A stretch of 64,000 bases of DNA, taken from an uncultured Candidatus Binatia bacterium. Its GTDB lineage: Bacteria > Desulfobacterota > Binatia > UBA9968 > JAJDTQ01. The notes under the pieces are model-generated. The model was given only the letters and a program-made list of their open reading frames with translations. It ran no database searches and was not told where the DNA came from. Location: assembly GCA_965204505.1 (NCBI GenBank), contig CBDBFB010000002.1, positions 2,370,778 through 2,434,777 of the forward strand, written 5' to 3'. How positions within the stretch are numbered: the stretch's first letter is position 1; every line of letters starts with the position of its first letter. A program made the translations under genes and the position numbers. Positions 1,966 through 41,653 of this stretch are shown piece by piece.

Positions 1966-2562
1966 GTGTTCACGTCCCTGCACCACCTGATCGACGGCGA
2001 GTGGATGCGCGAAGCCTACCGGCGGACGCGAAAGGATGGGGCGACGGGCATCGACGGCGTGACGGCTGCGGACTACGAGAAGGACCTTGAGGCCAACCTT
2101 GACGGCCTGCTGGACCGGATCAAGTCGGGCCGTTACTTTGCGCCGCCGGTGCGCCGGCGCTACATCCCCAAGGCGGACGGCACGAAACGGCCTCTGGGCA
2201 TACCGACGCTGGAAGACAAGGTGGCGCAACGGGCCATCCTGATGCTGCTGGAACCGGTCTACGAGACGGACTTTGTGCCGTGCTCGTACGGCTTCCGGCC
2301 CGGGCGGTCGGCCCACGATGCCCTGAACGCACTGCGAAAGGGCATCATGGAGCAGCGCCAACGGTGGGTGATCGACGCGGATCTGAGATCGTACTTCGAC
2401 TCGATCCCGCACGGCCACCTGAGGACCTTCCTCGACCTGCGGATCAAGGACGGCGTCGTAAGGCGCATGATCGACAAATGGCTGAAGGCAGGGGTGCTCG
2501 AAGAGGGCACCGTGCACAAACCGGTTGCTGGCACTCCCCAGGGCGGGGTGATGACGCCCTGA
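1966..2562 (+). pseudogene. Intron X RT N-terminal half (RT domains 0-4), truncated at ...GTPQGGV by the insertion that starts at 2551
   Basis: HHLIDGEWMREAYRRTRKDGATGIDGVTAADYE...RPLGIPTLEDKVAQRAI...SYGFRPGRSAHDAL...VIDADLRSYFDSIPH...TPQGGV is a typical group II RT. The expected ISPLLSN continuation resumes only at 4789. Confidence 0.75.
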
Positions 2563-2576
2563 ACGCAAAAGGTAAC
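2551..2576. repeat. Left terminal inverted repeat of the serine-recombinase element
   Basis: 26/26 nt reverse-complement match to 4763-4788. Two further imperfect matches extend inward. Confidence 0.85.
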
Positions 2577-2659
2577 TTCCGCTTTGAACGTGAGATTGTG
2601 CAATGGCGGGACCGTCCCTTAGTTGATTTACGCCGCAAAGGGTAATACTCTTATGACAA

Positions 2660-2989
2660 ATGGTTCGGTCGACACGAGCCCAAAAGGTCGAGCGGCTCAA
2701 CGCCGCCTACACACTCCTCGCCCAAGGCGTCTCCGCGAGCGAAGCCGTGTTGCGCCTGTCGCAACGCTTCGGGCTGTCGCAGCGCCAGTCGTATCGTTAC
2801 ATCCAGGACGCCCGCGCCATGAGCCAGCCGTCCGAGCCGGGCGAAGCGCTGACCCCCATCACTATCAAGATTCCGGGCACACTGGCGGCGACGCTGCGGG
2901 CGCATGCCAGGAGCAGCGGCCGCTCCATCGCGGAGATCGTCACCCGGGCTCTGAGGCGCTTCTTCTCGCATGCGGGTGGGCATGGCTGA
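2660..2989 (+). CDS. Small DNA-binding protein (N-terminal HTH-like, C-terminal ribbon-helix-helix-like) carried inside the recombinase element. It could be an accessory protein or a recombination directionality factor (RDF)
   Basis: 109-aa ORF. LLAQGVSASEAVLRLSQRFGLSQRQSYRYIQDA is HTH-like. ITIKIPGTLAATLRAHARSSGRSIAEIVTRALRRFF resembles a CopG/RHH beta-strand plus helices. There is no clear Shine-Dalgarno. Confidence 0.4.
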   Translation: MVRSTRAQKVERLNAAYTLLAQGVSASEAVLRLSQRFGLSQRQSYRYIQDARAMSQPSEPGEALTPITIKIPGTLAATLRAHARSSGRSIAEIVTRALRRFFSHAGGHG

Positions 2990-3135
2990 ACGTCGCGCGG
3001 GCTCCCGGCCCTCCGTTCAACTCGCTTATGCCTTTGATCGTCTGCTCGACGCCAAGCTCCAGAACGTCTACGCGATCCTGGTGCCGGATCAGGCTCACAA
3101 GATCCCGGCCCGGGCGCACGATATAGGAGACGAAC

Positions 3136-4899
3136 ATGAGGATCGCAGCCCTGTACGCGCGGGTCTCGGGCGAGCAGCAGAGAGATAGCCACACGATCGC
3201 CAGCCAGACCGAAGCCCTGGTAGCCTACGCCGAGTGTCACGGGTACCGCGTCGCGCCCGACATGATCATCGAGGACGACGGCTACAGCGGCGCCGTTCTC
3301 GAACGCCCGGGACTCGAGCGGGTCCGGGACCTCGCCGCGGAAGGGCGCATCGACACGGTGGTGGTGCATGCCCCGGACCGCTTGAGCCGGCGCTATGCCT
3401 ATCAGGTTGTGATTATCGAGGAGCTGGCGCGCCAGGGCGTCGAGACCGTGTTTGTGAACGCTCCGTCGATGGAAACCCCCGAGGACCACCTCCTCGTGCA
3501 GTTCCAGGGCATGATCGCGGAATATGAACGCGCCCAGATTCTGGAGCGTTCCCGGCGCGGCAAGCGTCATCGGGCGCGACGCGGCGAAGTCGCCGTCCTC
3601 AGCGGCGCGCCCTATGGCTACCGCTACCACAAGAAGACCCCGGACAGCGATGCGTTCTACGAAATCATCGAACCGCAGGCTTCGGTGGTTCGCGAGGTCT
3701 ACCGCTGCTACACTTGCGACCACATGAGCATCGGCGCGATCACGCGCAATCTCAAGGAGCGCGAGGTCCTTACGGCCACGGGGCGTTCGCGCTGGGAACG
3801 CTCGACCGTGTGGGCGATTCTCCGCAACCCCGCCTACAAGGGGACGGCCTGTTTCGGCAAGACCCGCCAGATGCCTCGAAAAAGCGTGACACGTCCTGTA
3901 CGCCTGAGCGGAGGCTTCGCCAGCGCCACTACCGGCAGTCACGAGAAACCGCGTGAGGAGTGGATCGAGATCCCGGTGCCGGCGATCGTCAGCGAGGAGA
4001 CCTTCGCCCTGGCCGAAGAGCGGCTGGAGAGAAACAAGATCCACGCGCCACGTCGCACCAAGACACTCAGCGTGGTCCAGGGACTGGTCTCCTGCGGCAA
4101 ATGCGGCTACGCGTGGTACCGCACCTCGGCCCAGACGAGCGCCCGCAAGATCTCCTATTACCGCTGCCTGGGATCCGATTCGTGGCGCCACCTCAACGGG
4201 CCGCTGTGCGACAGCCGTCCGGCGCGCCAGGAACTGCTTGATGACGTCGTATGGACCGAGGTGGTCCGCCTGCTGGAGAACCCTGCACTGATCAGCGCGG
4301 AAATCGACCGGCGACTGGAGGCGGCCCGTGCCTCCGACCCCAACCAGCAGCGCGAGGCCGACCTGCGGCGCCGGCTGATCAGGGTCCGCAAGAGTATCGA
4401 CCGCCTGGTCAATGCCTATCAGGAGGAGTTGATAACCATCGACGAACTGCGTGACAGAACGCCCGAACTTCGCCGTCAGGAGCAGGCGCTGCATCGCGAA
4501 CTGCAATCCGCGGTCGATCAGGCCAAGGAGCGCGAGACCTACCTGCGGCTCGCCGAGACCCTGACCGACTTTCTGGAGAGGCTGCGTTCGTCCGCCGAAA
4601 CCCTCGACATCGCGGAACGTCAACGCATCGTACGGCTCCTCGTGAAGGAGGTGTTGGTCAGCGAAGACAAAATCACGATCCGCCATTCAATCCCGATCTC
4701 GGGCTCGCCAGGAGGCGGTCCAGACCCCTCGAAATCCGCCACGGACAGCCCCGAAGGCGAAGGTTACCTTTTGCGTTCAGGGCGTCATCTCGCCGATGCT
4801 TTCCAACATCTTCCTGCACCATGTGCTGGACGAGTGGTTCGAGAAAGTGGCGAAGCCACGCTTGTACGGAAAGTGCCAGTTGGTGCGTTTCGCCGATGA
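3136..4899 (+). CDS. Large serine recombinase (resolvase/invertase N-terminal catalytic domain plus large C-terminal recombinase/zinc-ribbon/coiled-coil region)
   Basis: [24 protein letters not shown]...[14 protein letters not shown]...[12 protein letters not shown]...[27 protein letters not shown]...GAPYGYRY... then a Cys-containing zinc-ribbon (CGKCGYAWY...YYRC) and long coiled-coil. The ORF reads through the right IR into flanking RT sequence before stopping at 4899. Confidence 0.85.
4763..4788. repeat. Right terminal inverted repeat of the serine-recombinase element
   Basis: 26/26 nt reverse-complement match to 2551-2576. Confidence 0.85.
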
Positions 4900-4901
4900 C
4901 T
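4789..4901 (+). pseudogene. Intron X RT fragment (domain 5-7 up to the FADD/YADD motif)
   Basis: [38 protein letters not shown], then interrupted by GTGCGCC... (intron Y). Confidence 0.6.
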
Positions 4902-5555
4902 GTGCGCCACGACGGCGACGAGAGGAGGTTCTGATGACGTAGCAGAGCCGAGTTGAAGCGCCTTGCTGCACAGGAGATGAGGGAAGGCCCCTCGGACTCG
5001 GGTTGCAGGACCAGGGTCCAAACCACCGCAAGCTGCTCCGGTTCAACGACCGGGGTGGTGAGCGTTGCGGAAAAGGCGGGAATCACCCGTCAGGTGTGCG
5101 CTGGTAAGACGAACGAAAGTGAACCGTTGATGACGTGTCGAAAGCGTAAAGATGTCGCCGAAACCAGGCTCCAGTCGTTGGTCTGGGATGGAGCTCGGAG
5201 GGTGCCTGCTGACTGGCCGAGCGGCGACCGGCATGAAGGCGGCGTGAGACCAGCGAGAGGCTCTTGTGCGGAACGTGGGAACCTGGAGCTCCGATGCCAA
5301 GGGAGACCTCCAAGCGGAAGAACCGCAAGGAGCCGAGTACCGAAGCGGAGCACAGGGACGGACGGGTCCGTATTAGCGATGAAGCCCGGCAATGCGGGCG
5401 GAGCGAAGGGACCCGACCCTCTGGCCAAGGATGGAGGCCAACCAGAGATGGGAGGAGCCGGTGTCTGAGGCTGGAGGGTAGGAGCCGGATGAGGCGAGAG
5501 TCTCACGTCCGGTTCTGGGAGGGCCGAGGGGTGAAATTCCCCTCGGCTACTCGAC
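4902..5555 (+). mobile_element. ORF-less group II intron Y (654 bp) nested in the RT ORF of intron X directly after FADD
   Basis: Begins GTGCGCC (the same 5' end as intron copies at 35879 and 39668). It contains domain V gagccggatgag-gcgagag-tctcacgtccggttc (5482-5515) and ends ...ggctactcgAC. Excision joins gatgac-t|ttgtcatcgccctcgaa, which encodes FADDFVIALE. Confidence 0.5.
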
Positions 5556-6115
5556 TTGTCATCGCCCTCGAAGACCGCCACAGCGGCAAGCGTCTGCTTG
5601 ACGTGCTGGGCAAGCGTCTCGGTCGATACGGGCTCACGCTCCATGAGACCAAGACGCGCCATGTGGACTTCCGCCGGAGACGCCCATACGGGCGTCACTG
5701 GATGGCGTCGGCCACGACGTTCGATTTCCTCGGCTTCACCCACGTGTGGGGGCGGTCGAGGCAAGGCAAGGACGTCGTTCGCCAGATTACGGCGAAGGGC
5801 CGCTTCGCCCGTGCGCTGAAAGCGGTGCACCAGTGGTGCAAGAGATGCCGGCACCTGCCGGTAAAGGCGCAGCAAGACTATCTTGCACGGGTGATCCGGG
5901 GCCACTGCGCATACTACGGTCTGACGGGGAACGGCAAACGTCTGGAGCGGTTCCGCCAACAGGTCGCCCGCATCTGGCGAACGTGGCTCGCACGCCGCAG
6001 CCGCCTCAGGTGCTTGAACTGGGACCGGATGAACGAACTTCTCAAGCGATATCCCTTGCCGCGAGTCACCTTCATGCGCTCATGGCAACGCTTCCTGAGC
6101 GAACCTGTCAGATGA
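5556..6115 (+). pseudogene. Intron X RT C-terminal part (post-YADD palm/thumb and maturase X domain)
   Basis: LVIALEDRHSGKRLLDVLGKRLGRYGLTLHETKTRHVDF...FDFLGFTHVWGRSRQGK...GHCAYYGLTGNGKRLERF... parallels 57440-58051 and 31380-31902. Confidence 0.65.
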
Positions 6116-6189: not shown

Positions 6190-6249
6190 CCTCAAGGCGA
6201 CCCTCGAGGCCATCGCCTCGGGCCATCCCGCCTCGCGCATCGACGAACT
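6190..6249 (+). pseudogene. tnpC: IS66 tnpC 3'-terminal fragment
   Basis: LKATLEAIASGHPASRIDEL matches the intact TnpC C-terminus (23110-23180). Homology stops at 6249/6250 where the inverted ORF-less intron begins. Confidence 0.5.
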
Positions 6250-7077
6250 GTCGGGTAGGGCACTGGCGCGCGCACCTTTATTGGGCCACGTTTCCAGCCG
6301 CCCTCCCTAAAATTCCGTACGTCGGGTTTTCCCCGGTACGGCTTCAAGCTTCAGGCACCTCGCAGTTCGGCACGGAGCCTTCCGCAGGGTCGCCGAGGTC
6401 AAGGCCGATCCCGCCATACCCCCGAACGGACGCTGCGTTTGCTCCGCCCTTCGACGATGCCACTCGCCGGTTGATGCGTCGCCTCTGTGTGCGAAACCGC
6501 CGGTTGCAACATCGCCACCTGAGCCCAGAGGCCCTCGCTCCGGCCGGGTTATGTTGTCCCGGCCATCACCGCTTGTCGGCCTCATCCGCCAGTCTGGACG
6601 TCTCCGCCTCATTTCCCGGCACGACCGGTTATAGACGCGGTCTTTGACATTCGAGGATCATCCTGTCTGACCTCCAGACCTTCCGGACTTTCGCTGCGGT
6701 ACTTTCGAGTATTGCCGCCTTCAATACGCCGGGAGCCCCGGTGCGTGCGCCTCAGTTTCTTCCGCACCGGCACTGGCCATCGGGTAGGCAAGAAAACCCT
6801 TGGCAGCTCCAATTTATCCCGCAAATCAGCTTCACGCGGGAACGCCCTTTTCGACGCTTGATCCGTTCACTCTCGTTGCGGCCCTGCTCGTTGCTCGCCT
6901 TCCGGGCTGATCGCACAGGAGCGGCACAAAGGCCTCCCTGTCCCCCGAGGCTTTTACGTCCGGGCTTCCAGATCGCCGGGTCGCCCCGTGCGTCTGCCGG
7001 ATATGACTACGGCGCCAAACTGAGAACTGCGCCGGCGGGACTCTCACCCGCTAGTACCGCAGCTAGTCTCGCTGCGC
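6250..7077 (-). mobile_element. ORF-less group II intron (about 830 bp), a second copy of the element at 56380-57283, inserted near the 3' end of the IS66 remnant
   Basis: The reverse complement aligns over its length with 56380-57283. Shared segments include agtcccgccggcgcaRttctcagtttggcgYcgtagtcatatcc and a domain V gaagccgtaccggggaaaacccgacgtacggaat. Its 3' end ...ccctacccgAC abuts IS66 sequence. IS66 homology resumes at 7078 (cctcccctgggcgttcacacccgc). Confidence 0.5.
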
Positions 7078-7120
7078 CCTCCCCTGGGCGTTCACACCCG
7101 CTTTCCCGCTGATCCCGGGG

Positions 7121-7148
7121 CGCCCGCGGGCGCCCGCGGGCGCCCGCC
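7121..7148. repeat. 10-bp tandem repeat (CGCCCGCGGG), about 2.7 units. The homologous site upstream of paralogue 2 (about 14057-14075) has about 1.7 units
   Basis: Direct reading: cgcccgcggg cgcccgcggg cgcccgccac at copy 1 versus gcgcccgcgggcgcccgccact at copy 2. Confidence 0.6.
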
Positions 7149-7414: not shown

Positions 7415-7486
7415 GCCCAGCGGCCCAGCGGCCCAGCGGCCCAGCGGCCCAGCGGCCCAGCGGCCCAGCGGCCCAGCGGCCCAGCG
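7415..7486. repeat. Octanucleotide microsatellite (GCCCAGCG)x9
   Basis: Counted directly: nine perfect 8-bp units, followed by ggcagcgacATG. Confidence 0.95.
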
Positions 7487-7495
7487 GGCAGCGAC

Positions 7496-30072: not shown

Positions 30073-32054
<1,982 letters not shown>

Positions 32055-32114
32055 CAGCGTCGCAGCGTGTAACACGGGAAAGTTTTCTTGGGAATCGCCG
32101 ATTCTCTCGAGTAA

Positions 32115-33530
32115 CTACGCTGCTGCCGGTGCGCCGTTGGGCATTTCTTCGTTGACGGCGGCCTGGACAAGCCGGTAGCCGAGAGTCCGGGCCTTTCGGT
32201 TGAGGTTGGCGAAGGTGCGATCGATGCGCCGCTTCTCATAGGCGTCCATGCCCTTCTCGACGTATTCCTCGCCCCGCGTCACCATCAGGTAGATGAGGCA
32301 GGCGAGCTCGCGCGCGGTTGCGGTGATGGCGACGGCCGCGTCCTTGCGGGCGAGACGGGCGCGGTGTTTGGCGCCGATGAAGGTCTGGCTCCTTCGCGCT
32401 CCCAAGGCGGCCATCCGAAGCGCCTGCGCGACCGGGTTGACCACCTTGGGCGCCCGGCCCGGCAATGGCTTGCCGCCGCTGATCCGGGTCCCCGGCGCCA
32501 CCCCCAGCCAGGAGCAGAAGTGCTGGGCGGAAGGGAAGGCGGAGAAGTCCGGGCCGATCTCCGAGGCGATGGTCAGGACGGTTCCGGTGCCGACGGTCGG
32601 GATCGCGGTGAGGTCGACGCCCATCAGCTCGTGCAGGGCCATGGTCAAGGCCCTGTCGCCGGCCGCAGACTTCTTGCCTCCGGTGCGCGACAGCGTCTTC
32701 CAGCCTTCGCCGGACGATCCGTCACCAGAGCCTTCGTCCCCGGATGAGCTGCCGCCTGGCGGCGTCAGGCGCTCGATCTGCGCCGCGATCTGTCCCTCGC
32801 AGGCCTCGATCTGCTGTTCGAGGAAGTCGTAGCGCTGCATGGCCTGCTCCAGCGCGAACAGGTGCTCCTCGCGCCAGGTGCCCTCCAGGCTTGCGGCGAT
32901 CATCTCAACGCTGGCCTTGACCCGCCAGTTCCGGAACGACGCCAGACGCCGCGGGTCGCGCTCGCCGCCGATGATCGCCCGCAGGATCTTCTGTCCGGTC
33001 TCGCCCATGATGTCGGCCAGCACCGAGTCCAGCCGGACGTTCATCTCGGTCAGCGCCTTCTGCATGTGCTGCACGCAACGCGCGCGGTCCTCGATCAGCC
33101 GCTTCGCCTGCCGCACGTAGGAGCGGAGCGGGCACACCGCATCCCCGGGACGGAAGGCGCCCCGCAGAAGCCCGTAGGACAGCAGCTGCCAGATCCACTG
33201 GCAATCGAGCACGTCGCTCTTGCGCCCGGCGATCTGCTTCGTCATCCGCGGCGGCACCAGCAACACCTCGAAGCCCGCGCGCTCCAGCACCTCGTACACC
33301 GGGATCCAGTACACCGAGGTCGATTCCATCGCCACCTTCTTCACCCCGCACGACCCCAGCCAGGCCGCCATCGCCTTCAGGTCCCGTGTGAAGGCGTCGA
33401 ACGACCGGACCGGCTCCGCACAGCGCTCCGGATCCACCGCCACAAAGTGACGGTCCTTGCCGATGTCGATCCCCGCGCAGTCCGGGTTCACCACCTTCAG
33501 ACGCTCCGTCCTCTTGCTCTTCCGTGGCAT
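32115..33530 (-). CDS. IS110-family transposase (IS1111-like subgroup)
   Basis: MPRKSKRTERLKVVNPDCAGIDIGKDRHFVAV... and ...GVDLTAIPTVGTGTVLTIASEIGPDFSAFPSAQHFCSWLGVAPGTRISGGK... SD gggagga. Confidence 0.8.
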   Translation of the reverse strand: MPRKSKRTERLKVVNPDCAGIDIGKDRHFVAVDPERCAEPVRSFDAFTRDLKAMAAWLGSCGVKKVAMESTSVYWIPVYEVLERAGFEVLLVPPRMTKQIAGRKSDVLDCQWIWQLLSYGLLRGAFRPGDAVCPLRSYVRQAKRLIEDRARCVQHMQKALTEMNVRLDSVLADIMGETGQKILRAIIGGERDPRRLASFRNWRVKASVEMIAASLEGTWREEHLFALEQAMQRYDFLEQQIEACEGQIAAQIERLTPPGGSSSGDEGSGDGSSGEGWKTLSRTGGKKSAAGDRALTMALHELMGVDLTAIPTVGTGTVLTIASEIGPDFSAFPSAQHFCSWLGVAPGTRISGGKPLPGRAPKVVNPVAQALRMAALGARRSQTFIGAKHRARLARKDAAVAITATARELACLIYLMVTRGEEYVEKGMDAYEKRRIDRTFANLNRKARTLGYRLVQAAVNEEMPNGAPAAA

Positions 33531-35878
33531 CTCAAGTCCTCCCGCCTTGTGTTGTGCCGGGGAGGAACCACACGGCGAAATCTCAATCTCTCGAACGAGG
33601 TCGCGGCCAAGCCGCGCCATCAGTGACAAAAGCCGATCGTGGTTCGGGCCAAGCTCCAGAACGGGTGCCTGTGCACGCCATTGAACCGACGGCCTCGACT
33701 CCCCGGCCACCGTCACTTCACCGCATCACCGCCCCCCGGTGCAAGCCCCGGTTACTTTCGCGACTAAGCCGCCGCGTCGCGCGGGGGTGCCCGCTCCGGA
33801 GAATCTTCGCCGCCAGCCCTGCGCTTTCGCTGCCACAACTGCTTCCTTGCATTGACGCCTCAGGACCGCCCGCGATCCACGGCTTCGGCCGGGTATGCTC
33901 TGACCTCTCCCTCCCGCTCAAGTGCCGCTCGGGCTAACCCGTTGATATCCAGCGTCTTTTGTGCCCCCATCGCCGATGTCCCGCCATGCGGTTCCGTCTC
34001 TACGGCGGAGCCGGTATTCTTCCACACCTGCCGCACCATGGTGCCTGTCGTGCCTTGTCTGCGACCGGGTGCGCTCCCTTGCGCAGGTCGAGCCCCTCCG
34101 ACCCGCTCGCACCATGGAAAAGGTGTGTTCTCTCCGTAACACGGGCGTATACCGATCGTGTACCGGTCCAAACACACGCCTGCGATTTCAAGGACTTGGC
34201 GGACTCCAGGCTGCAACGCAAAAGCGACGCAAGGCCATTCACCCTGGCGAAATCCTCCAGCTTGTATCCTACGGGTGATCCGGGCGGTCGCGCCCGCCAG
34301 CGACCGGCAGCGGCTTTTCCATGACAGCCCCGGCGTGACGAGGATGCTCGGACGAGGCGCGGTCGCAGGCTTGCATGCTCAAGGCCATGAACCCCGCCGC
34401 GTGAGCGCCCTCGCGCGCTAGAGTACGGAGCATCGGACGAATGCGCTGGAGAATCCGCTGCCGGGATCGCGGTTCCCTGGGGAACCCAACCGTGCAGACG
34501 AACGACAGGCTGCGCACGGGCATGAACTGCGGCGGGCCGCTGAGCCCGGGAGCGGGAGGGGGGCGGTGGAATGCCCCGGCCCCGGCCCGGTGGCGATGCC
34601 GGGGTTCCCCGAATCGATCCGGGGATGGGTCTCTCTCGCCGGCGACGGCCTCGGGGCTGGCCGCGAGGAGGGAGGGTGTCTACAGTTCGAGGTCCACGTC
34701 GAGCAGCTTTTCTTCCGGTTCGCGCGCCTCTTCCTGTACGGGCTCGCGGTCCGGTCCACGTGAGCGGTCCTCCTCGGGTTCGGTTTCCCGTTCCGGGTCC
34801 CAGGATTCGAGACCGTCCGCGTCCCGTCCGGCACTCCGTTCCGGCGATTTCAGGTCGTCCTCCCAGTCGAGGTCATGCCCCGGTTGATGCCCGCCCCCGT
34901 GTCCCGCGTCCGGCTGAAGCTCGGGTTCGTACTCGCGATCGATGCGGTCCACGTGGCCGGCGTCCCGCTCTTCGGGCGGTTCGAGGCCCAACTCCATCTC
35001 GTGCGCGGCTTCTCTGGCGACTCCATCCAACGCCGAGATCCGCTCTCCAGTCGCTCTCTCCAGTTGTTCGGAGAGCTTCCTGGCATCGTCTGTGACCAGC
35101 TCGGCATGGTCCCGTGCGCGGCTGATGGCCACGTAGAAGGCTTTCTGGTTGGTCAGGTTCGGATTGCCGGCGGGCATTGCGGCAACGATATGGTCTACGG
35201 TCCTGCCCTGAAAAGCATGCACCGTATTCGCCCAGGCCCTGTCCATGTGGCGGAGTTGCGGGTCGTCTTCGTCCAGTCCGGCTTCCTTTCCGTTCTCCAG
35301 CCGGAACCGGACTCCCTCCTTTTCGATGGATTCCACCTCCGCTGTCTCGCCGTTCACGAGTTCCGAGCCTGGATCGTTGCGCGTCCACCGGACCCAATCG
35401 CCCGCCCGGAGCTCCATCTCCTCGCTCCTGTAGACCTCCACGCCGCCCTTGGCGGCGGCAATCCGGTACGGCCGCCAGGCCACAAGATCCCCACCGCCGC
35501 CGTCCAGCCAGACCGTGTTGCGCTGGTAGTCGACCCGCGCGACCTCGCGCTCGTCTCCTTTTTCCACCCCGAGCGTCCTGTACTGCCGGTTGAAGATCAC
35601 CGTGTCTCCGGCCGAGTAGTTGGAGGCCCGGGCCATCTCCGCCCGGGTCAGGCCCCTCGGCACGAGCTTCTTGCCCTGGCGGGCGGGACCCGAGACCGCG
35701 CCTTCGGCGATCAGATTCTCGCGGACCCTCGTGTTGATCTCGTCCCGCAGAGCCCGAGTTGGGGCGATCACCCCTGCTGCCGTGCGTTGCTCGGGAGACA
35801 GTTTCAGCCAGCGTTCGGCGGCTTCGAGGCCGATGTCCTCCCGTTCCACCTGCACAACCCGGTCGCCGAGCTTCTCGA

Positions 35879-37864
35879 GTGCGCCGTGCAAGGCGCCATC
35901 CCTTAGCGGGTTGCGAGACCCGCCCGGCAACTGTCGCTCCAGCCGGTAGCAGTCGGAGCGGACGATGGAGGTAACGACATGGTTTGAAGCACTCCGATGA
36001 AACGGGCCGCCTTGGGCGGCTCAGCGACCATGCGGGCCGCAACGCGAGTGAACGCCGAGCAGGCCTCGAAACTGGCAACGCGGAAGCCGACCCGCCTCGA
36101 GTACGGGAAAGGCTGCCATCGGCCGGGAAGCGAGCGACACACGCACCGGCCGGTTCCGCCGGGGTATTGGCGGCGGCACGCATGGAAGAAGGGGATGGAC
36201 GCAACACGGGAAGCCCCGGCGGTGGCGTAGCACGCGCCAACCGACAACCCGCGAGGGATGGGTCGGGCCGTTCGGGGTGGCGGAGAGGTCCGTAGTACCG
36301 CGGAAGCCGGGTAATGCCGGTGGAGGGAAGGGGCCTTGGTTCGAGAGCAGCGTTTGGAAGGAGGAAGGGACATGGGGACTGGCGAGAGCCTATCCGACCC
36401 GGAAAAGGTCCGGAGACTCCAGACGGCGCTACATGCGAAAGCGAAGGAGGCCCCGGGCTTTCGGTTCTACTCACTGAGCGACAAGGTGTGGCGCGCCGAC
36501 GTGATGGCGGTCGCCTGGCAGGAGGTCCGCCGCAATGGCGGAGCCGCCGGGGTGGACGGTCAGACGGTAGCGGACATCGAGGCGCAAGGCGTGGAGCGGT
36601 GGCTTGGGGAACTGAGGCGGGACCTGAAGGCGGGAACCTATCGGCCCGAGGCGGTCCGGCAGGTTCTCATACCAAAGAAGCAGCGTGGGAAGTTGCGGCC
36701 CCTGGGCATTCCCTGCATACGGGACAGGGTGGCGCAGACGGCGGCGATGCTAGTGCTGTCGCCGATCTTCGAGGCCGACCTGCAACCGGAACAGTATGCC
36801 TACAGGCTGGGCCGGAGCGCGAATGATGCTGTCAGGCGCGTACACCGGCTGTTGAACACGGGCCACCGCGAGGTGGTGGACGCGGATCTAACGGACTACT
36901 TCGGCCAGATTCCGCACGCCGAACTGCTCAAGTCCGTCGCCCGGCGCGTGAGCGACGGGCGGATGCTGGGCTGGGTTAAGGCGTGGCTTGAGATGGCGGT
37001 CGAAGAAGACGACGGCAAGGGCGGCAAACGCCGTACGAACCGGGCGCGTCGCGAGAGGAAGGGAACCCCTCAAGGTTCTCCGATCTCCCCGTTGCTCTCC
37101 AACATCTACATGCGCCGCTTCATACTGGGCTGGAAGGTGCTGGGCCATGCCCGGCGCTTCAAGGCGGAAGTCGTCAACTATGCCGACGACCTGGTTGTGC
37201 TCGGCAAATCGTCGTCAGCGGAAATGCTGGCGGTGGTCGAGAACCTGATGGAACGGCTGAAACTGACGGTCAATGCCGAGAAGACCCGATGCTGCCGGGC
37301 GCCGGAGGACTCGTTTGAGTTCCTTGGCTATCGGATTGGACGCAACTACCGCCCGCACGGGAAGGGGAGCTACATCGGCACCCGGCCCAGCAAGGCGAGC
37401 GTCCAGAGCATCTGCCGCAGGATTAGCGAACTAACGGAACCCCGCTATGGGCTCCTGGACCAGGAGGTCGTGGCCGAACGGCTCAATCGACTGATGCTCG
37501 GGTGGTCAAAGTACTTCATCCTGGGCCAGGTCGAGCCGGCCTATGCCGCGATCGACAGGCACGCTATCAAGCGGCTGCTCCAGTGGCGGCGTCGCAAGCA
37601 CAAGGTGAGAGCCCGTAATTATGTGCAATACGGGTACGAGCAGCTCTGGACTGAGCACGGTCTCATCCGCCTTGCACCGCGAGCGACACGCTTTCCGTGG
37701 GCGAAGGCATGATCTCGTCCGAGAGCCGTGTGCGGGAAAACCGCACGCACGGTTCGATGAGCGGGGACTGGAAACGCGGCCAAGGGAGCCGGACTGAGGC
37801 CCGGAGCGAAAGCGACGGACAAGCCACCGGACCCTAAAGCTGGCGCGCCAGTCCTCGACTCTAC
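35879..37864 (+). mobile_element. Group II intron (copy 2, 1986 bp) inserted antisense in the relaxase gene
   Basis: 5' GTGCGCCGTGCAAGG and 3' ...cctcgactctAC. Identical to 39668-41653. Confidence 0.75.
36372..37712 (+). CDS. Group II intron reverse transcriptase/maturase
   Basis: 446 aa from MGTGESLSDPEKVRRLQTALHAKAKEAP. YADD present. About 75-80% identical to the 30562-31902 protein. Confidence 0.85.
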   Translation: MGTGESLSDPEKVRRLQTALHAKAKEAPGFRFYSLSDKVWRADVMAVAWQEVRRNGGAAGVDGQTVADIEAQGVERWLGELRRDLKAGTYRPEAVRQVLIPKKQRGKLRPLGIPCIRDRVAQTAAMLVLSPIFEADLQPEQYAYRLGRSANDAVRRVHRLLNTGHREVVDADLTDYFGQIPHAELLKSVARRVSDGRMLGWVKAWLEMAVEEDDGKGGKRRTNRARRERKGTPQGSPISPLLSNIYMRRFILGWKVLGHARRFKAEVVNYADDLVVLGKSSSAEMLAVVENLMERLKLTVNAEKTRCCRAPEDSFEFLGYRIGRNYRPHGKGSYIGTRPSKASVQSICRRISELTEPRYGLLDQEVVAERLNRLMLGWSKYFILGQVEPAYAAIDRHAIKRLLQWRRRKHKVRARNYVQYGYEQLWTEHGLIRLAPRATRFPWAKA

Positions 37865-39667
37865 ACGCGGTCTTCACCTCGCCTGCCAGGCCCGCCCGCA
37901 CCGCTTCCTTGAGCTCCATGTCGCGCTGGCGAAGGATCTCGTCCATCACCGCGGTCTGCATTCCGGCGCGCCTGAGTTGCTCGAATGGCTTCCCCGCCTC
38001 CACCGCCCCGAGCTGCTTCTCGTCCCCGACCAGCACCACCCGAGGGACCCGGAGCGTGGTCGCGGCCTTGAGGAGATCCCGCATCTGCTCGCTCGACGCG
38101 AGCGATGACTCGTCCACCACCAGGACCGTCCTCGAGAACGAGGCGCGCAACTGGCGCAGACCCTTCACCGTGCCCCGGCCCTCGATGACTCCCGCGTGGC
38201 GGGCCAGGAACCGTTGCAGAGTCTCCGATTCGATTCCGGATTCCTGGGAGAGCGTGCGCGCGGCCGACGCCGAAGGCGCAAGGCCCACCGCCCGGTAGTC
38301 GCGGCTCTCCGCCAGCGTCCGAAGCCGCTTCAGCATCGTCGTCTTGCCCGTTCCCGCATAGCCCTGCACTCCCACCACGCGGTCTTTCGATGCGAGCACC
38401 ATCCTGACCGCTTCCTTCTGCCCCTTGTTGAGACGTCCTCCGTGGAGCTTCGTCTCCGCAATCCAGCGCCGCATGATCGCCTTCCCCGAGCCCTGGCCCG
38501 CGTGCATCAGCGCGATGGCCTCGGACTCGCGCCCGATTGCCGCGTCCGTGGTCCAGTGCCTGCCGTGATCCAGACCCCTGGCGGCGTGCAGTCCGCCCTC
38601 GCGTTCGAGGTCCGAGACGGCCCGTTCCGCCGCCTCCACCGTGACCGCGCCCGGCTCCCGGGACAGTGCAGCCGCCAGGAGGTCCCCATGGCCGAACACC
38701 GCCTGGCGTTCGGAAAGGTGCTCGACCGCCCAGGTTGCCGCCTCCGCGGCAGGCTGTCCCCGGTCCGTGAACAGGTCCGGCGCCGGGAGTTCTCGTTCCG
38801 CCTTGCGCGCCTTAGCCCGCACCGCCTCCGCCGAAAACCCCATCTCCGCGGCCTGGCGCTCCCAGGACCGGCGCAGTTCGCCCCGTTCCACGTCGCGCTT
38901 CGCCGCCCGCGTCATCAGCGTGGCCCGCGCCGCCAGGTGCGGGTTGTCCCCCGTCCCGCCCAGGCCGTGCTCTCTCATCGCCGCCTCGATCTCCGACCGC
39001 CGCGTCGAGAACTCCTCGATCACCTCCCGTGATACCCCGGCGATCTCGAACCGCCCGTCCGGGTGCGTCTTCTCTATCCCGTACCCGAGATCCCGGAGCC
39101 CTTGCGCCAGCTCCGCCCGGTAGATCGCTCCGATCGTCATCTTGCCCTTGAAGAGCCCGTCGTCCACCATTGTGCGCCACCTTTGATCCTCGCCTTGCAC
39201 CATGTTGGCGACAACGGCATGAGTGTGGAGTTGAGGGTCCAGGTTGCGGGAGGTGTCGTGGCGGAAGGTCGCCGCCACCATCTTCTGGCCGCCGGCCCGG
39301 ACCATCGCGCCCGTCTCCCGGTCCTGCATCCGGGTCTCGACGGCATTCTTCTCGATCCACGCCAACGTCCTGCCCACTGCCCTGTCATGGGCGTCCACGA
39401 TCCGCTCGTCTCCGCCCACCAGCGCCATGAGCGACACCGACTTGGGTGCGGACAGCGTCACGTCACGGCCCGGACGGTGCTGAATGTTGCCGTCGAGGTC
39501 CTTGCGGCCGAGTTGGCGCTCGCCGGGTACCTTGCCCTCGAGGATGGCCCGGAACGCATCGGAGTCTACCGGGCCGGAGAGCCCGAGTTCTTCCGCGCCC
39601 CGGCCGGCCCAGGCGCTCGCTTCCTTGTGGGCGGGATCGTCTTTCCCGTAGTACCCATCCCTTTCGA

Positions 39668-41653
39668 GTGCGCCGTGCAAGGCGCCATCCCTTAGCGGGT
39701 TGCGAGACCCGCCCGGCAACTGTCGCTCCAGCCGGTAGCAGTCGGAGCGGACGATGGAGGTAACGACATGGTTTGAAGCACTCCGATGAAACGGGCCGCC
39801 TTGGGCGGCTCAGCGACCATGCGGGCCGCAACGCGAGTGAACGCCGAGCAGGCCTCGAAACTGGCAACGCGGAAGCCGACCCGCCTCGAGTACGGGAAAG
39901 GCTGCCATCGGCCGGGAAGCGAGCGACACACGCACCGGCCGGTTCCGCCGGGGTATTGGCGGCGGCACGCATGGAAGAAGGGGATGGACGCAACACGGGA
40001 AGCCCCGGCGGTGGCGTAGCACGCGCCAACCGACAACCCGCGAGGGATGGGTCGGGCCGTTCGGGGTGGCGGAGAGGTCCGTAGTACCGCGGAAGCCGGG
40101 TAATGCCGGTGGAGGGAAGGGGCCTTGGTTCGAGAGCAGCGTTTGGAAGGAGGAAGGGACATGGGGACTGGCGAGAGCCTATCCGACCCGGAAAAGGTCC
40201 GGAGACTCCAGACGGCGCTACATGCGAAAGCGAAGGAGGCCCCGGGCTTTCGGTTCTACTCACTGAGCGACAAGGTGTGGCGCGCCGACGTGATGGCGGT
40301 CGCCTGGCAGGAGGTCCGCCGCAATGGCGGAGCCGCCGGGGTGGACGGTCAGACGGTAGCGGACATCGAGGCGCAAGGCGTGGAGCGGTGGCTTGGGGAA
40401 CTGAGGCGGGACCTGAAGGCGGGAACCTATCGGCCCGAGGCGGTCCGGCAGGTTCTCATACCAAAGAAGCAGCGTGGGAAGTTGCGGCCCCTGGGCATTC
40501 CCTGCATACGGGACAGGGTGGCGCAGACGGCGGCGATGCTAGTGCTGTCGCCGATCTTCGAGGCCGACCTGCAACCGGAACAGTATGCCTACAGGCTGGG
40601 CCGGAGCGCGAATGATGCTGTCAGGCGCGTACACCGGCTGTTGAACACGGGCCACCGCGAGGTGGTGGACGCGGATCTAACGGACTACTTCGGCCAGATT
40701 CCGCACGCCGAACTGCTCAAGTCCGTCGCCCGGCGCGTGAGCGACGGGCGGATGCTGGGCTGGGTTAAGGCGTGGCTTGAGATGGCGGTCGAAGAAGACG
40801 ACGGCAAGGGCGGCAAACGCCGTACGAACCGGGCGCGTCGCGAGAGGAAGGGAACCCCTCAAGGTTCTCCGATCTCCCCGTTGCTCTCCAACATCTACAT
40901 GCGCCGCTTCATACTGGGCTGGAAGGTGCTGGGCCATGCCCGGCGCTTCAAGGCGGAAGTCGTCAACTATGCCGACGACCTGGTTGTGCTCGGCAAATCG
41001 TCGTCAGCGGAAATGCTGGCGGTGGTCGAGAACCTGATGGAACGGCTGAAACTGACGGTCAATGCCGAGAAGACCCGATGCTGCCGGGCGCCGGAGGACT
41101 CGTTTGAGTTCCTTGGCTATCGGATTGGACGCAACTACCGCCCGCACGGGAAGGGGAGCTACATCGGCACCCGGCCCAGCAAGGCGAGCGTCCAGAGCAT
41201 CTGCCGCAGGATTAGCGAACTAACGGAACCCCGCTATGGGCTCCTGGACCAGGAGGTCGTGGCCGAACGGCTCAATCGACTGATGCTCGGGTGGTCAAAG
41301 TACTTCATCCTGGGCCAGGTCGAGCCGGCCTATGCCGCGATCGACAGGCACGCTATCAAGCGGCTGCTCCAGTGGCGGCGTCGCAAGCACAAGGTGAGAG
41401 CCCGTAATTATGTGCAATACGGGTACGAGCAGCTCTGGACTGAGCACGGTCTCATCCGCCTTGCACCGCGAGCGACACGCTTTCCGTGGGCGAAGGCATG
41501 ATCTCGTCCGAGAGCCGTGTGCGGGAAAACCGCACGCACGGTTCGATGAGCGGGGACTGGAAACGCGGCCAAGGGAGCCGGACTGAGGCCCGGAGCGAAA
41601 GCGACGGACAAGCCACCGGACCCTAAAGCTGGCGCGCCAGTCCTCGACTCTAC
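39668..41653 (+). mobile_element. Group II intron (copy 3, 1986 bp) inserted antisense in the relaxase gene
   Basis: Sequence identical to copy 2. Flanks are ccctttcga| and |aatagctgg. Confidence 0.75.
40161..41501 (+). CDS. Group II intron reverse transcriptase/maturase
   Basis: Identical to 36372-37712. Confidence 0.85.
   Translation: MGTGESLSDPEKVRRLQTALHAKAKEAPGFRFYSLSDKVWRADVMAVAWQEVRRNGGAAGVDGQTVADIEAQGVERWLGELRRDLKAGTYRPEAVRQVLIPKKQRGKLRPLGIPCIRDRVAQTAAMLVLSPIFEADLQPEQYAYRLGRSANDAVRRVHRLLNTGHREVVDADLTDYFGQIPHAELLKSVARRVSDGRMLGWVKAWLEMAVEEDDGKGGKRRTNRARRERKGTPQGSPISPLLSNIYMRRFILGWKVLGHARRFKAEVVNYADDLVVLGKSSSAEMLAVVENLMERLKLTVNAEKTRCCRAPEDSFEFLGYRIGRNYRPHGKGSYIGTRPSKASVQSICRRISELTEPRYGLLDQEVVAERLNRLMLGWSKYFILGQVEPAYAAIDRHAIKRLLQWRRRKHKVRARNYVQYGYEQLWTEHGLIRLAPRATRFPWAKA

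Follow-up and report, generated by a model that had tools for sequence, protein, structure and literature searches.

A candidate insertion sequence-like family moved by a large serine recombinase and targeted to group II intron reverse transcriptase genes

A 64,000-nucleotide stretch of DNA from an uncultured Candidatus Binatia bacterium (contig CBDBFB010000002.1 of assembly GCA_965204505.1; hereafter the window) carries, at positions 2551-4788, what is very probably an intact copy of a site-specific, insertion sequence (IS)-like element mobilized by a large serine recombinase (LSR). The element interrupts the reverse transcriptase (RT) gene of a group II intron and belongs to a family of which 73 complete copies were recovered from metagenome-assembled genomes (MAGs), metagenomes of soil and completely sequenced plasmids of rhizobia; the least similar LSRs are 60% identical. 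Family members are inserted with base precision, mostly in DNA coding for motif 4 of group II intron RTs, and end in inverted repeats that co-vary within each element. They also carry a recombinase reading frame whose last codons lie at the opposite end of the element, where they show the substitution pattern of a coding sequence.

The element and its target in group II introns

The window contains two exact occurrences of ATGACGCCCTGAACGCAAAAGGTAAC and no more, one at 2551-2576 (forward strand) and one at 4763-4788 (reverse strand), with 0 mismatches; the chance expectation for such an inverted pair was 0 (100 shuffles), and beyond these 26 nt complementarity of the termini continues imperfectly up to 42 nt (88%). 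The repeats bound a 2238-bp unit with two genes, both on the forward strand, encoding a 109-aa protein with helix-turn-helix (HTH) and ribbon-helix-helix (RHH) regions (2660-2989; Pfam RHH_1) and the LSR, codons 1-551 of which occupy 3136-4788 (Pfam Resolvase, Recombinase and Zn_ribbon_recom). Each repeat consists of an outer AT dinucleotide, read directly at 2551-2552 on the left and 4787-4788 on the right, and a 24-nt inner arm. The left arm, GACGCCCTGAACGCAAAAGGTAAC (2553-2576, forward strand; the putative P' half of attP), has its exact inverted copy in the right arm (4763-4786, reverse strand; the putative P half), which also codes for the ..YLLRSGR stretch of the recombinase. The first-pass annotation of this DNA had described the two-gene segment and its exact repeats, and all of its coordinates proved correct.

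The flanks of the element belong to a group II intron, with an Rfam match to domains D1-D4 at 1336-1555 and a Pfam RVT_1 match within 1966-2562. The upstream half of the target (1966-2550, forward strand; the putative left half of attB) comprises the RT gene up to ...GTPQGGV, as placed by RVT_1 and by alignment with LtrA, and the downstream half (4789-4900, forward strand; the putative right half) comprises the RT gene up to ..RFADD, also placed by alignment with LtrA, after which a second insertion follows. Excision in silico, by deleting 2553-4788 and keeping one AT (2550-AT-4789), restores the RT reading frame, and the rejoined product aligns without gaps with LtrA GTPQGGILSPLLANIYLHE (PDB 5g2x, E 9e-42), as expected from the earlier claim that removal of the segment restores the RT motif.

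Insertion is precise at base resolution. The copy on plasmid pUSDA76 of Bradyrhizobium elkanii USDA76 (L040, ~212.2-214.5 kb of NZ_CP066357.1), when excised in silico (400 nt on each side, one AT), gives 800 nt that are 100.0% identical to an intact ltrA on the B. japonicum USDA123 plasmid CP126019.1, its empty counterpart, annotated 'ltrA group II intron reverse transcriptase/maturase'; the joined flanks are also found at 99.5-99.9% identity in ten further Bradyrhizobium plasmids. Exactly 2 nt are common to the two junctions, and the empty site keeps one copy of them. The window itself contains an unoccupied site in the RT of a second intron (57284-57396); over 113 nt it matches the reconstructed empty sites of copies L028 and L020 at 94% and 87% identity, respectively. 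Within it, a motif scan together with these identities places the candidate target cctcaaggctcggtg GT ttcgccggtattggcgaac at 57320-57355 on the forward strand.

The target was defined from the 136 distinct flanks of the 73 complete copies, 127 of them classifiable. By strict patterns for the two RT halves, RT-upstream or RT-downstream DNA makes up 112 of the 127 classifiable ends (~88%); several of the 15 'other' ends are visible RT variants, and non-RT sites also exist. Upstream flanks read ..CCGCA(A/G)GGCGGNGTN, coding for ..PQGG(V/P/A), and downstream flanks read CTCGCCNCTGCTNNCCAAC.., coding for SP(L/V/M)L(A/S)N. RT motif 4 (motif B of polymerases) is the most conserved stretch of group II intron RT genes. 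Copies stand in both orientations relative to the RT (22 sense, 18 antisense), and a minority (12/73) are flanked by two upstream halves (6 copies) or two downstream halves (6 copies). Group II intron RNA domains were found beside copies at 6 of the 20 loci scanned. Three copies from one Binatia MAG (CBDCOS01), L026, L028 and L038, share half-flanks in the combinations A-B, A-X and Y-B, as an inversion between two oppositely oriented copies would be expected to produce.

Both genes are present in every complete copy (tblastn), and all full copies are 2.22-2.32 kb long and contain these two genes only, bar one with a nested IS110-like insertion. The inner 24-nt arm has exact matches in 39 stretches of MAG contigs, and the MAGs concerned are labelled Alphaproteobacteria, Binatia, Deltaproteobacteria, Spirochaetia, Methylococcaceae, Steroidobacteraceae and Xanthobacteraceae; the 24-mer is identical even where LSR identity is only 63-69% and that of the small protein ~49%. 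Single MAGs can hold many copies (at least 8 stretches in one, with paired arms ~2.21-2.22 kb apart), and MAGs with different labels share copies that are 97-98% identical. Metagenome contigs searched with a profile yielded 586 relatives, and among the best 80 of them (60-85% identity), which were examined for arms, 55 have both arms, 2.22-2.31 kb apart. Finished plasmids carry the element in B. elkanii USDA76 and Rhizobium sp. T136; at the rhizobial copies, RefSeq places a 'ribbon-helix-helix protein, CopG family' and a 'recombinase family protein' between two RT-domain fragments, and the plasmid-borne arms differ in their outer 5-6 nt while keeping the CC(C/T)GAACGCAAAAG core. The family therefore consists of insertion sequences in the ISfinder sense, being shorter than 2.5 kb, limited to mobility functions, multi-copy and polymorphic in insertion, with defined ends.

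Several variants accompany the standard form. Copy L027 (282-4283) is 4.0 kb long, its two genes being separated by a 1.9-kb insertion that encodes a 426-aa protein resembling IS110-family transposases by eye. At L034 (1400-1575), a 176-bp gene-less derivative, reminiscent of a miniature inverted-repeat transposable element, retains both arms within an RT motif-4 site, together with ~70 nt from the left end and the final ~85 nt or so of the recombinase gene; it may have been mobilized in trans or deleted in place. A sub-lineage of ~2.31 kb, roughly 70 nt longer (L062-L064, L069, L072, L077, L078, L083, L086 and L101), has its own arm variant, (G/T)ACTCCCC(G/T)TACGCAAAAGGTAAC, and a 31-codon recombinase tail ending in LDLRLKK and a stop codon. 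The RefSeq recombinase models of L040 and L041 (NZ_CP088011.1) extend beyond the element on the right and take in RT-derived sequence, while the RT appears in the annotation as two separate 'domain-containing' proteins, so that annotation pipelines miss the element entirely.

Putative attachment site, recombinase and split reading frame

Once a serine-integrase element has integrated, the P' and P arms of its attP form the inner parts of attL and attR, and hence appear as inverted termini. The inverted repeats of the present family are best read as the two arms of such an attP, in this case a palindromic one. They are perfect in 34 of the 73 elements, and the two arms vary together: mismatches average 1.43 within an element and 3.73 between shuffled partners, and 0 of 2000 shuffles reached the observed value. 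Arm positions 11-19 (ACGCAAAAG) are almost invariant, and positions 1, 4, 8, 10 and 20 carry lineage-specific variants that are the same on both arms. Joining of the two ends would give a perfect 50-bp palindrome, GTTACC..GGCGTC-AT-GACGCC..GGTAAC, and the palindromic attP with its palindromic AT core would account for insertion in both orientations. By eye, GG.GT..T..CGCC surrounds the core in attP as well as in the RT site. The core dinucleotide is AT, CT, GT, GC or TT in different copies, AT being commonest, and forms the first two bases of the Ile, Leu, Val, Ala or Phe codon that precedes Ser-Pro in the RT. The first-pass annotation had read AT at both junctions as a serine-recombinase crossover and had considered long perfect terminal repeats foreign to transposons of this enzyme class. 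The AT at each junction of the window copy stands, though not as an obligatory core, given the other dinucleotides; the remark on terminal repeats holds for IS607, which has no inverted termini, but not for serine-integrase logic, since attP arms look exactly so after integration.

The recombinase has the domain order of integrase-type LSRs, with Pfam matches to Resolvase (3.5e-35, residues 4-151), Recombinase (PF07508, 6.3e-20) and Zn_ribbon_recom (PF13408, 1.4e-8). Ser11, the predicted catalytic nucleophile, lies in the motif YARVS and is invariant across 21 aligned homologues. The AF2 model comprises a catalytic domain, a recombinase domain, a zinc-ribbon region and, between this region and strands at 503-517, a 125-residue coiled coil (365-489); in Foldseek searches it matches, over its full length, SPbeta integrase (5e-18), PhiC31 integrase (8e-11) and the A118 LSR-DNA complex (1e-7). 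Sequence similarity to characterized LSRs is distant (best E 2e-11). Domain order, Ser11, the predicted structure and its Foldseek matches agree, and together support a canonical LSR architecture. Of the accompanying 109-aa protein, residues 67-100 match RHH_1 (E 2.4e-4) and residues 19-53 give weak matches to HTH_28 and HTH_7, which point to an N-terminal HTH and are seen in six orthologues. Its length is 109 aa in 9/9 aligned copies, which are 46-83% identical to the window protein, and a PDB sequence search with it returned no match; it may be a regulator (repressor) or a directionality factor.

The recombinase gene has no stop codon of its own within the integrated element. Its open reading frame (ORF) in the window extends from 3136 to 4899, past the right repeat into RT-derived sequence, as the first-pass annotation had noticed, and this read-through is not incidental: an in-element stop is absent in all 18 full copies first examined, the frame running through ..(G/S)YLLRSGR in the right arm and then into whatever sequence lies outside. 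Owing to this flank-dependent read-through, database homologues vary in length from 445 to 829 aa, with full-length ones from 553 aa. Among the 120 closest homologues, a YLLRSGR-type motif (1 mismatch allowed) stands at about residue 545 in 102, and the other 18 mostly have close variants of it by eye; after the motif, each runs into an unrelated tail. By alignment to RT-derived pseudo-peptides from only two reference RTs, at least 25 of these tails are RT sense sequence read out of frame and at least 37 are RT antisense; RT-derived tails occur in at least 62 of 117 database homologue clusters. The core dinucleotide supplies bases 2-3 of codon 551 (CAT in the window copy), which matches the H, R, P, Q or L found after SGR in the database proteins.

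When the right end of the element is joined to the left, the frame gains 30 codons and ends at a TAA (2643-2645) located 14 nt upstream of the ATG of the small gene, for a total of 581 aa. This left-end segment (2553-2645, forward strand), assigned to the recombinase on the basis of its conserved open frame and its substitution pattern, was compared in 75 copies, which have 63 distinct left ends and recombinases as little as 60% identical. In 73 of these copies the frame first closes at codon 30-32 (29-31 sense codons), length changes comprise whole codons, and the other two frames have early stops. The encoded tail has the conserved motif NAKGNFxF(E/D)RxIxxWRxxxxx(L/V)DLRxKx followed by the stop codon, with its Arg and Leu residues maintained through CGN/AGA and TTR/CTG swaps. 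The pN/pS ratio is 0.34 in this frame, compared with 1.19 and 1.83 in the others, and a codon-wise minimum-spanning-tree count gave 68 synonymous and 106 non-synonymous steps, a significant excess of synonymous change (p=4.4e-6) that is absent from the other two frames (p=0.1 and 0.7). The tail is preceded by a Gly/Pro/Ser-rich linker (residues 519-551), predicted by AF2 to be disordered.

Judged from these sequences, attP lies inside the recombinase coding sequence, such that integrated and free forms of the element would encode different proteins, as in split integrases. The full-length 581-aa protein would be encoded only by a form with joined ends (circle or tandem copy), and it is reasonably likely that the split tail is translated and functional.

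Proposed movement and alternative explanations

In the proposed mechanism, LSR dimers would bind both junctions, each consisting of one element arm and one RT half-site, and would cut with a 2-nt stagger at the core dinucleotide, followed by conservative strand exchange. Excision would release a 2236-bp circle and reseal the RT gene exactly. On the circle, the two arms would form the perfect palindromic attP and the recombinase gene would be completed; the circle could then integrate into the RT motif-4 DNA ..CCGCARGGCGGNGTN-NT-CTCGCCNCTGCTNNCCAAC.. of another intron copy, in either orientation. Since every circle would have to come from an integrated copy, a protein with a flank-encoded tail must suffice for excision, and the conserved C-terminal tail most plausibly acts in, or regulates, integration. 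It can further be proposed, tentatively and with more doubt than confidence, that the tailless recombinase of integrated copies favours excision while the circle-only 581-aa form licenses integration, so that topology would set the direction of recombination without a classical directionality factor. If this were so, the family would provide a bacterial serine-recombinase counterpart of the archaeal 'suicidal' integrases, and would be a hyperparasite specialized on group II introns, whose retrohoming it might exploit for its own spread.

A number of observations weigh against an LSR-driven cycle of this kind, or at least sit uneasily with it. The joined-end junction (circle or tandem), TGCGTTCAGGGCGTCNNGACGCCCTGAACGCA, had 0 matches in metagenome and viral contigs, and among 5.8 billion proteins searched with a junction-spanning 85-aa query none spans YLLRSGR and DALNAKGNF, the matches being only C-terminal recombinase fragments with flank-derived tails or flank ORFs reading into the left end. 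The missing junction carries little weight, because assemblies are unlikely to recover a perfect 50-bp palindrome from a rare circle. Integrated copies would yield recombinases with junk tails of 3 to ~280 residues, which is odd for an excision enzyme. The AF2 model is of modest confidence (mean predicted local distance difference test score 64), a promoter scan recognized no sigma-70-like consensus promoter in the element, and no exact empty counterpart of the window's own intron was found within the window or the other data examined. The core dinucleotide raises a further difficulty. Forty copies have an upstream flank on one side and a downstream flank on the other; read in the RT sense, their junction pairs are AT/AT in 17, CT/CT in 4, GC/GC in 3, GT/GT in 2 and TT/TT in 1, and are unequal in 13, two of the latter (L028 and L041) on long or finished replicons. 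A variable core is without explanation in canonical LSR chemistry; characterized LSRs such as PhiC31 and Bxb1 are not known to ligate mismatched cores. Unequal pairs would be left, after replication, by a conservative 2-nt staggered exchange between non-identical cores, and they speak against target duplication; alternatively, they may stem from homologous recombination between copies, mutation or short-read chimeras.

These junctions bear on whether the element could instead be a cut-and-paste transposon of DDE or other type, moved in trans with a 2-bp duplication and carrying the recombinase and RHH genes as passengers (e.g. as a resolution module). Perfect terminal repeats and the same dinucleotide at both ends, as in 27 of the 40 copies, do resemble a classical IS, and the gene-less derivative at L034 would fit mobilization in trans. 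However, this explanation is very improbable: duplication does not predict the 13 unequal junctions, including the two on long or finished replicons, and no other transposase type lies in, or consistently beside, any of the 73 copies. Furthermore, the arm sequences track the recombinase lineage and are paired within elements, the recombinase frame is built through both arms, and a strict 40-bp target is typical of site-specific recombinases. An invertible switch of the Hin/Gin type, flipping within a fixed locus without moving, would likewise place a serine recombinase gene between inverted recombination sites and in both orientations relative to the RT, and the palindromic AT core with identical arms makes inversion in situ chemically conceivable. 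Such a switch is nevertheless highly improbable, as more than 100 flanks derive from diverged introns and hosts and include non-RT sites, near-identical copies occupy differently labelled MAGs, and the enzyme is of the large integrase type, unlike a small invertase with a C-terminal HTH. The filled/empty polymorphism, with one pair 100% identical over 800 nt, disposes of a fixed invertible locus. The first-pass annotation had named constant flanks in relatives, or a lack of repeat and recombinase together elsewhere, as outcomes that would tell against it; its proposal of an uncharacterized IS-like element moved by an LSR is instead supported by the varied flanks, by the filled and empty sites, and by the co-occurrence of repeat and recombinase in 73 complete copies.

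LSRs are typical of phages and integrative conjugative elements, and the segment could therefore be pictured as all that is left, after decay and loss of cargo, of a larger prophage or integrative element, namely its integration module. This is extremely improbable for a ~2.24-kb two-gene unit that recurs 73 times over 40% protein divergence with intact ORFs, paired arms and two base-precise boundaries, and that has no phage or conjugation genes linked to it. A different objection concerns the tail alone: the left-end frame might be untranslated, its conservation reflecting constraint at the DNA level (accessory sites, an operator or the small-gene promoter), and the missing stop might be tolerated noise. 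The first 8 of the 30 codons are repeat arm and hence under constraint as DNA, the small gene begins directly downstream of the region, the circle was not observed, and an omega-like ratio of 0.48 is only moderate. Against this, the synonymous excess is confined to the tail frame, Arg and Leu are kept through multi-base codon swaps, lengths change by multiples of three, the stop position is all but constant and the other frames close early; in addition, by eye, the frame is lost through the low-complexity linker before the arm in only 3 of 120 homologues (P0069, P0074 and P0093). An untranslated left end is thus unlikely, albeit not negligibly so, and a translated tail is the preferred reading.

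Relation to known systems and the surrounding sequence

LSR-driven transposition is already known from Tn4451 and Tn5397; what is unusual here is the combination of minimal IS-like size with a palindromic attP, targeting of a retroelement catalytic motif, and a recombinase gene that depends on topology. The clostridial transposons Tn4451/Tn4453 (TnpX) and Tn5397 (TndX) resemble the present family in having an LSR as sole enzyme and a 2-nt core. They have short imperfect terminal repeats only, and their recombinase gene is complete inside the element, whereas here the 24-26-nt arms are often perfect, an HTH-RHH partner gene is present and the recombinase ORF crosses attP. Circularization of Tn4451 is said to have been found by Lyras and Rood, in 2000, to change tnpX expression through a promoter formed at the joint. 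Those elements are also 6-21 kb long with cargo and have a GA core, in contrast to 2.24 kb without cargo and an AT/NT core. As cited in a passage of PMC4430133, TndX is needed, and also suffices, for excision and insertion; the same passage gives DNA coding for a conserved Fic domain as the preferred target of Tn5397, a parallel to the use of RT motif 4 in that both targets encode conserved protein domains. The TnpX-like 'multi-targeting' LSR clade commonly carries DUF4368 (63%; Durrant 2022, PMC10083194), a marker that was not detected in the element's recombinase (Pfam scan, E<=0.01).

Phage serine integrases (SPbeta SprA, PhiC31, A118 and Bxb1) share with the recombinase their domain order and a zinc ribbon with coiled coil; their attP and attB are likewise distinct quasi-palindromes of ~40-50 bp around a 2-nt core, with P and P' arms that become inverted termini. 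The family differs from them in having no phage, a multi-copy target, a variable core and no recognizable recombination directionality factor of known type, and its perfectly palindromic attP with a usually palindromic core leaves no orientation control. IS607 is similar in its IS size, its serine recombinase and its insertion without conventional target duplication. In a passage of PMC6188088, IS607 elements are described as without terminal inverted repeats. They further differ in a small TnpA with an N-terminal DNA-binding domain, in low target specificity and in the frequent presence of tnpB, none of which is seen here; the present recombinase has an N-terminal catalytic domain followed by ~400 further residues, and the element has 24-26-nt inverted termini.

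Genes altered by integration have precedents elsewhere. SSV1-type 'suicidal' integrase genes are split on integration, a trait stated to be exclusive to archaea (PMC8371274), and in mycobacteriophage integration-dependent immunity the repressor loses a C-terminal tag on integration (PMC9262239). In both cases attP lies within a gene and integration changes the protein made, as proposed here; those systems are viral and use tyrosine recombinases, in contrast to a bacterial, IS-like serine recombinase of which the last 30 codons alone are separated. IS110/IS1111 elements, which insert in repetitive extragenic palindromic (REP) or attC sites, also find a safe place to land in sequence that is conserved and present in many copies, but with another enzyme class; the target here is a retroelement protein-coding motif, and its recognition is presumably by protein-DNA contacts rather than RNA-guided. 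Searches of the full-text literature, which did not extend to most subscription journals or ISfinder, revealed no earlier account of elements with a serine recombinase inside intron RT genes, of a palindromic attP or of a serine integrase gene spanning attP. A match in the Thiomargarita literature, considered as a prior description, was unrelated.

The family adds an IS-sized, LSR-moved group to the bacterial transposable elements, abundant in soil metagenomes and present in cultured rhizobia. It clearly represents one selfish element specialized on another; insertion inactivates the intron-encoded protein, which is relevant to the population dynamics of introns and to how 'fragmented' RTs are annotated. 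An attP within the recombinase gene, giving two protein forms, would offer a testable route to the question of serine-integrase directionality. The recombinase is compact, and with its 50-bp attP, which is symmetric, and a defined ~40-bp attB found in every group II intron RT it is also a potential tool for genome engineering.

The surroundings of the window copy are rich in other mobile DNA. The same RT gene carries a second insertion (4902-5565), a 664-nt ORF-less group II intron within the F/YADD catalytic motif that begins with GTGCG and has Rfam matches to D1D4-2 (4979-5095) and domain V (5480-5555). Joining 4901 to 5566 restores RFADDFVIALED, giving a twintron-like arrangement of an intron within the RT gene of an intron. 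The host intron is itself nested, being preceded, within 1-1279 of the window, by the 3' end of another group II intron (maturase ORF 72-563, domain V 551-627) followed by frameshifted fragments of an IS66-family transposase (597-1279), with sequence like the IS66 C-terminus again at ~6190-6260, after the host intron. Further along, 30099-41653 contains three introns of the D1D4-4 class (30099, 35904 and 39693). A motif scan of the window found unoccupied candidate targets at 37068-37103 (forward strand; PQGSPISPLLSN, AT core) and, identical to it, at 40857-40892. The introns at 35904 and 39693, which carry these identical empty target motifs, lie 3789 nt apart, have equal Rfam scores and are probably the product of a recent tandem duplication or homing event. 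A second D1D4-6-class intron (55314-58051) contains the unoccupied motif-4 site with the GT core described above, and its RT ORF is broken from 56394 to 57131, where the intervening sequence gives a D1D4-4 Rfam match (56404-56586).

Two small tandem arrays lie at 7114-7147 (10-nt unit) and 7415-7487, the latter perfect, with the 8-nt unit GCCCAGCG repeated 9.1 times, immediately upstream of and overlapping ORFs on both strands. Finally, an ORF on the reverse strand (59196-59666) resembles single-strand DNA-binding proteins and has an acidic C-terminus (..DDETIPF), which, with the large ORFs nearby, points to the backbone of a plasmid or of an integrative conjugative element.

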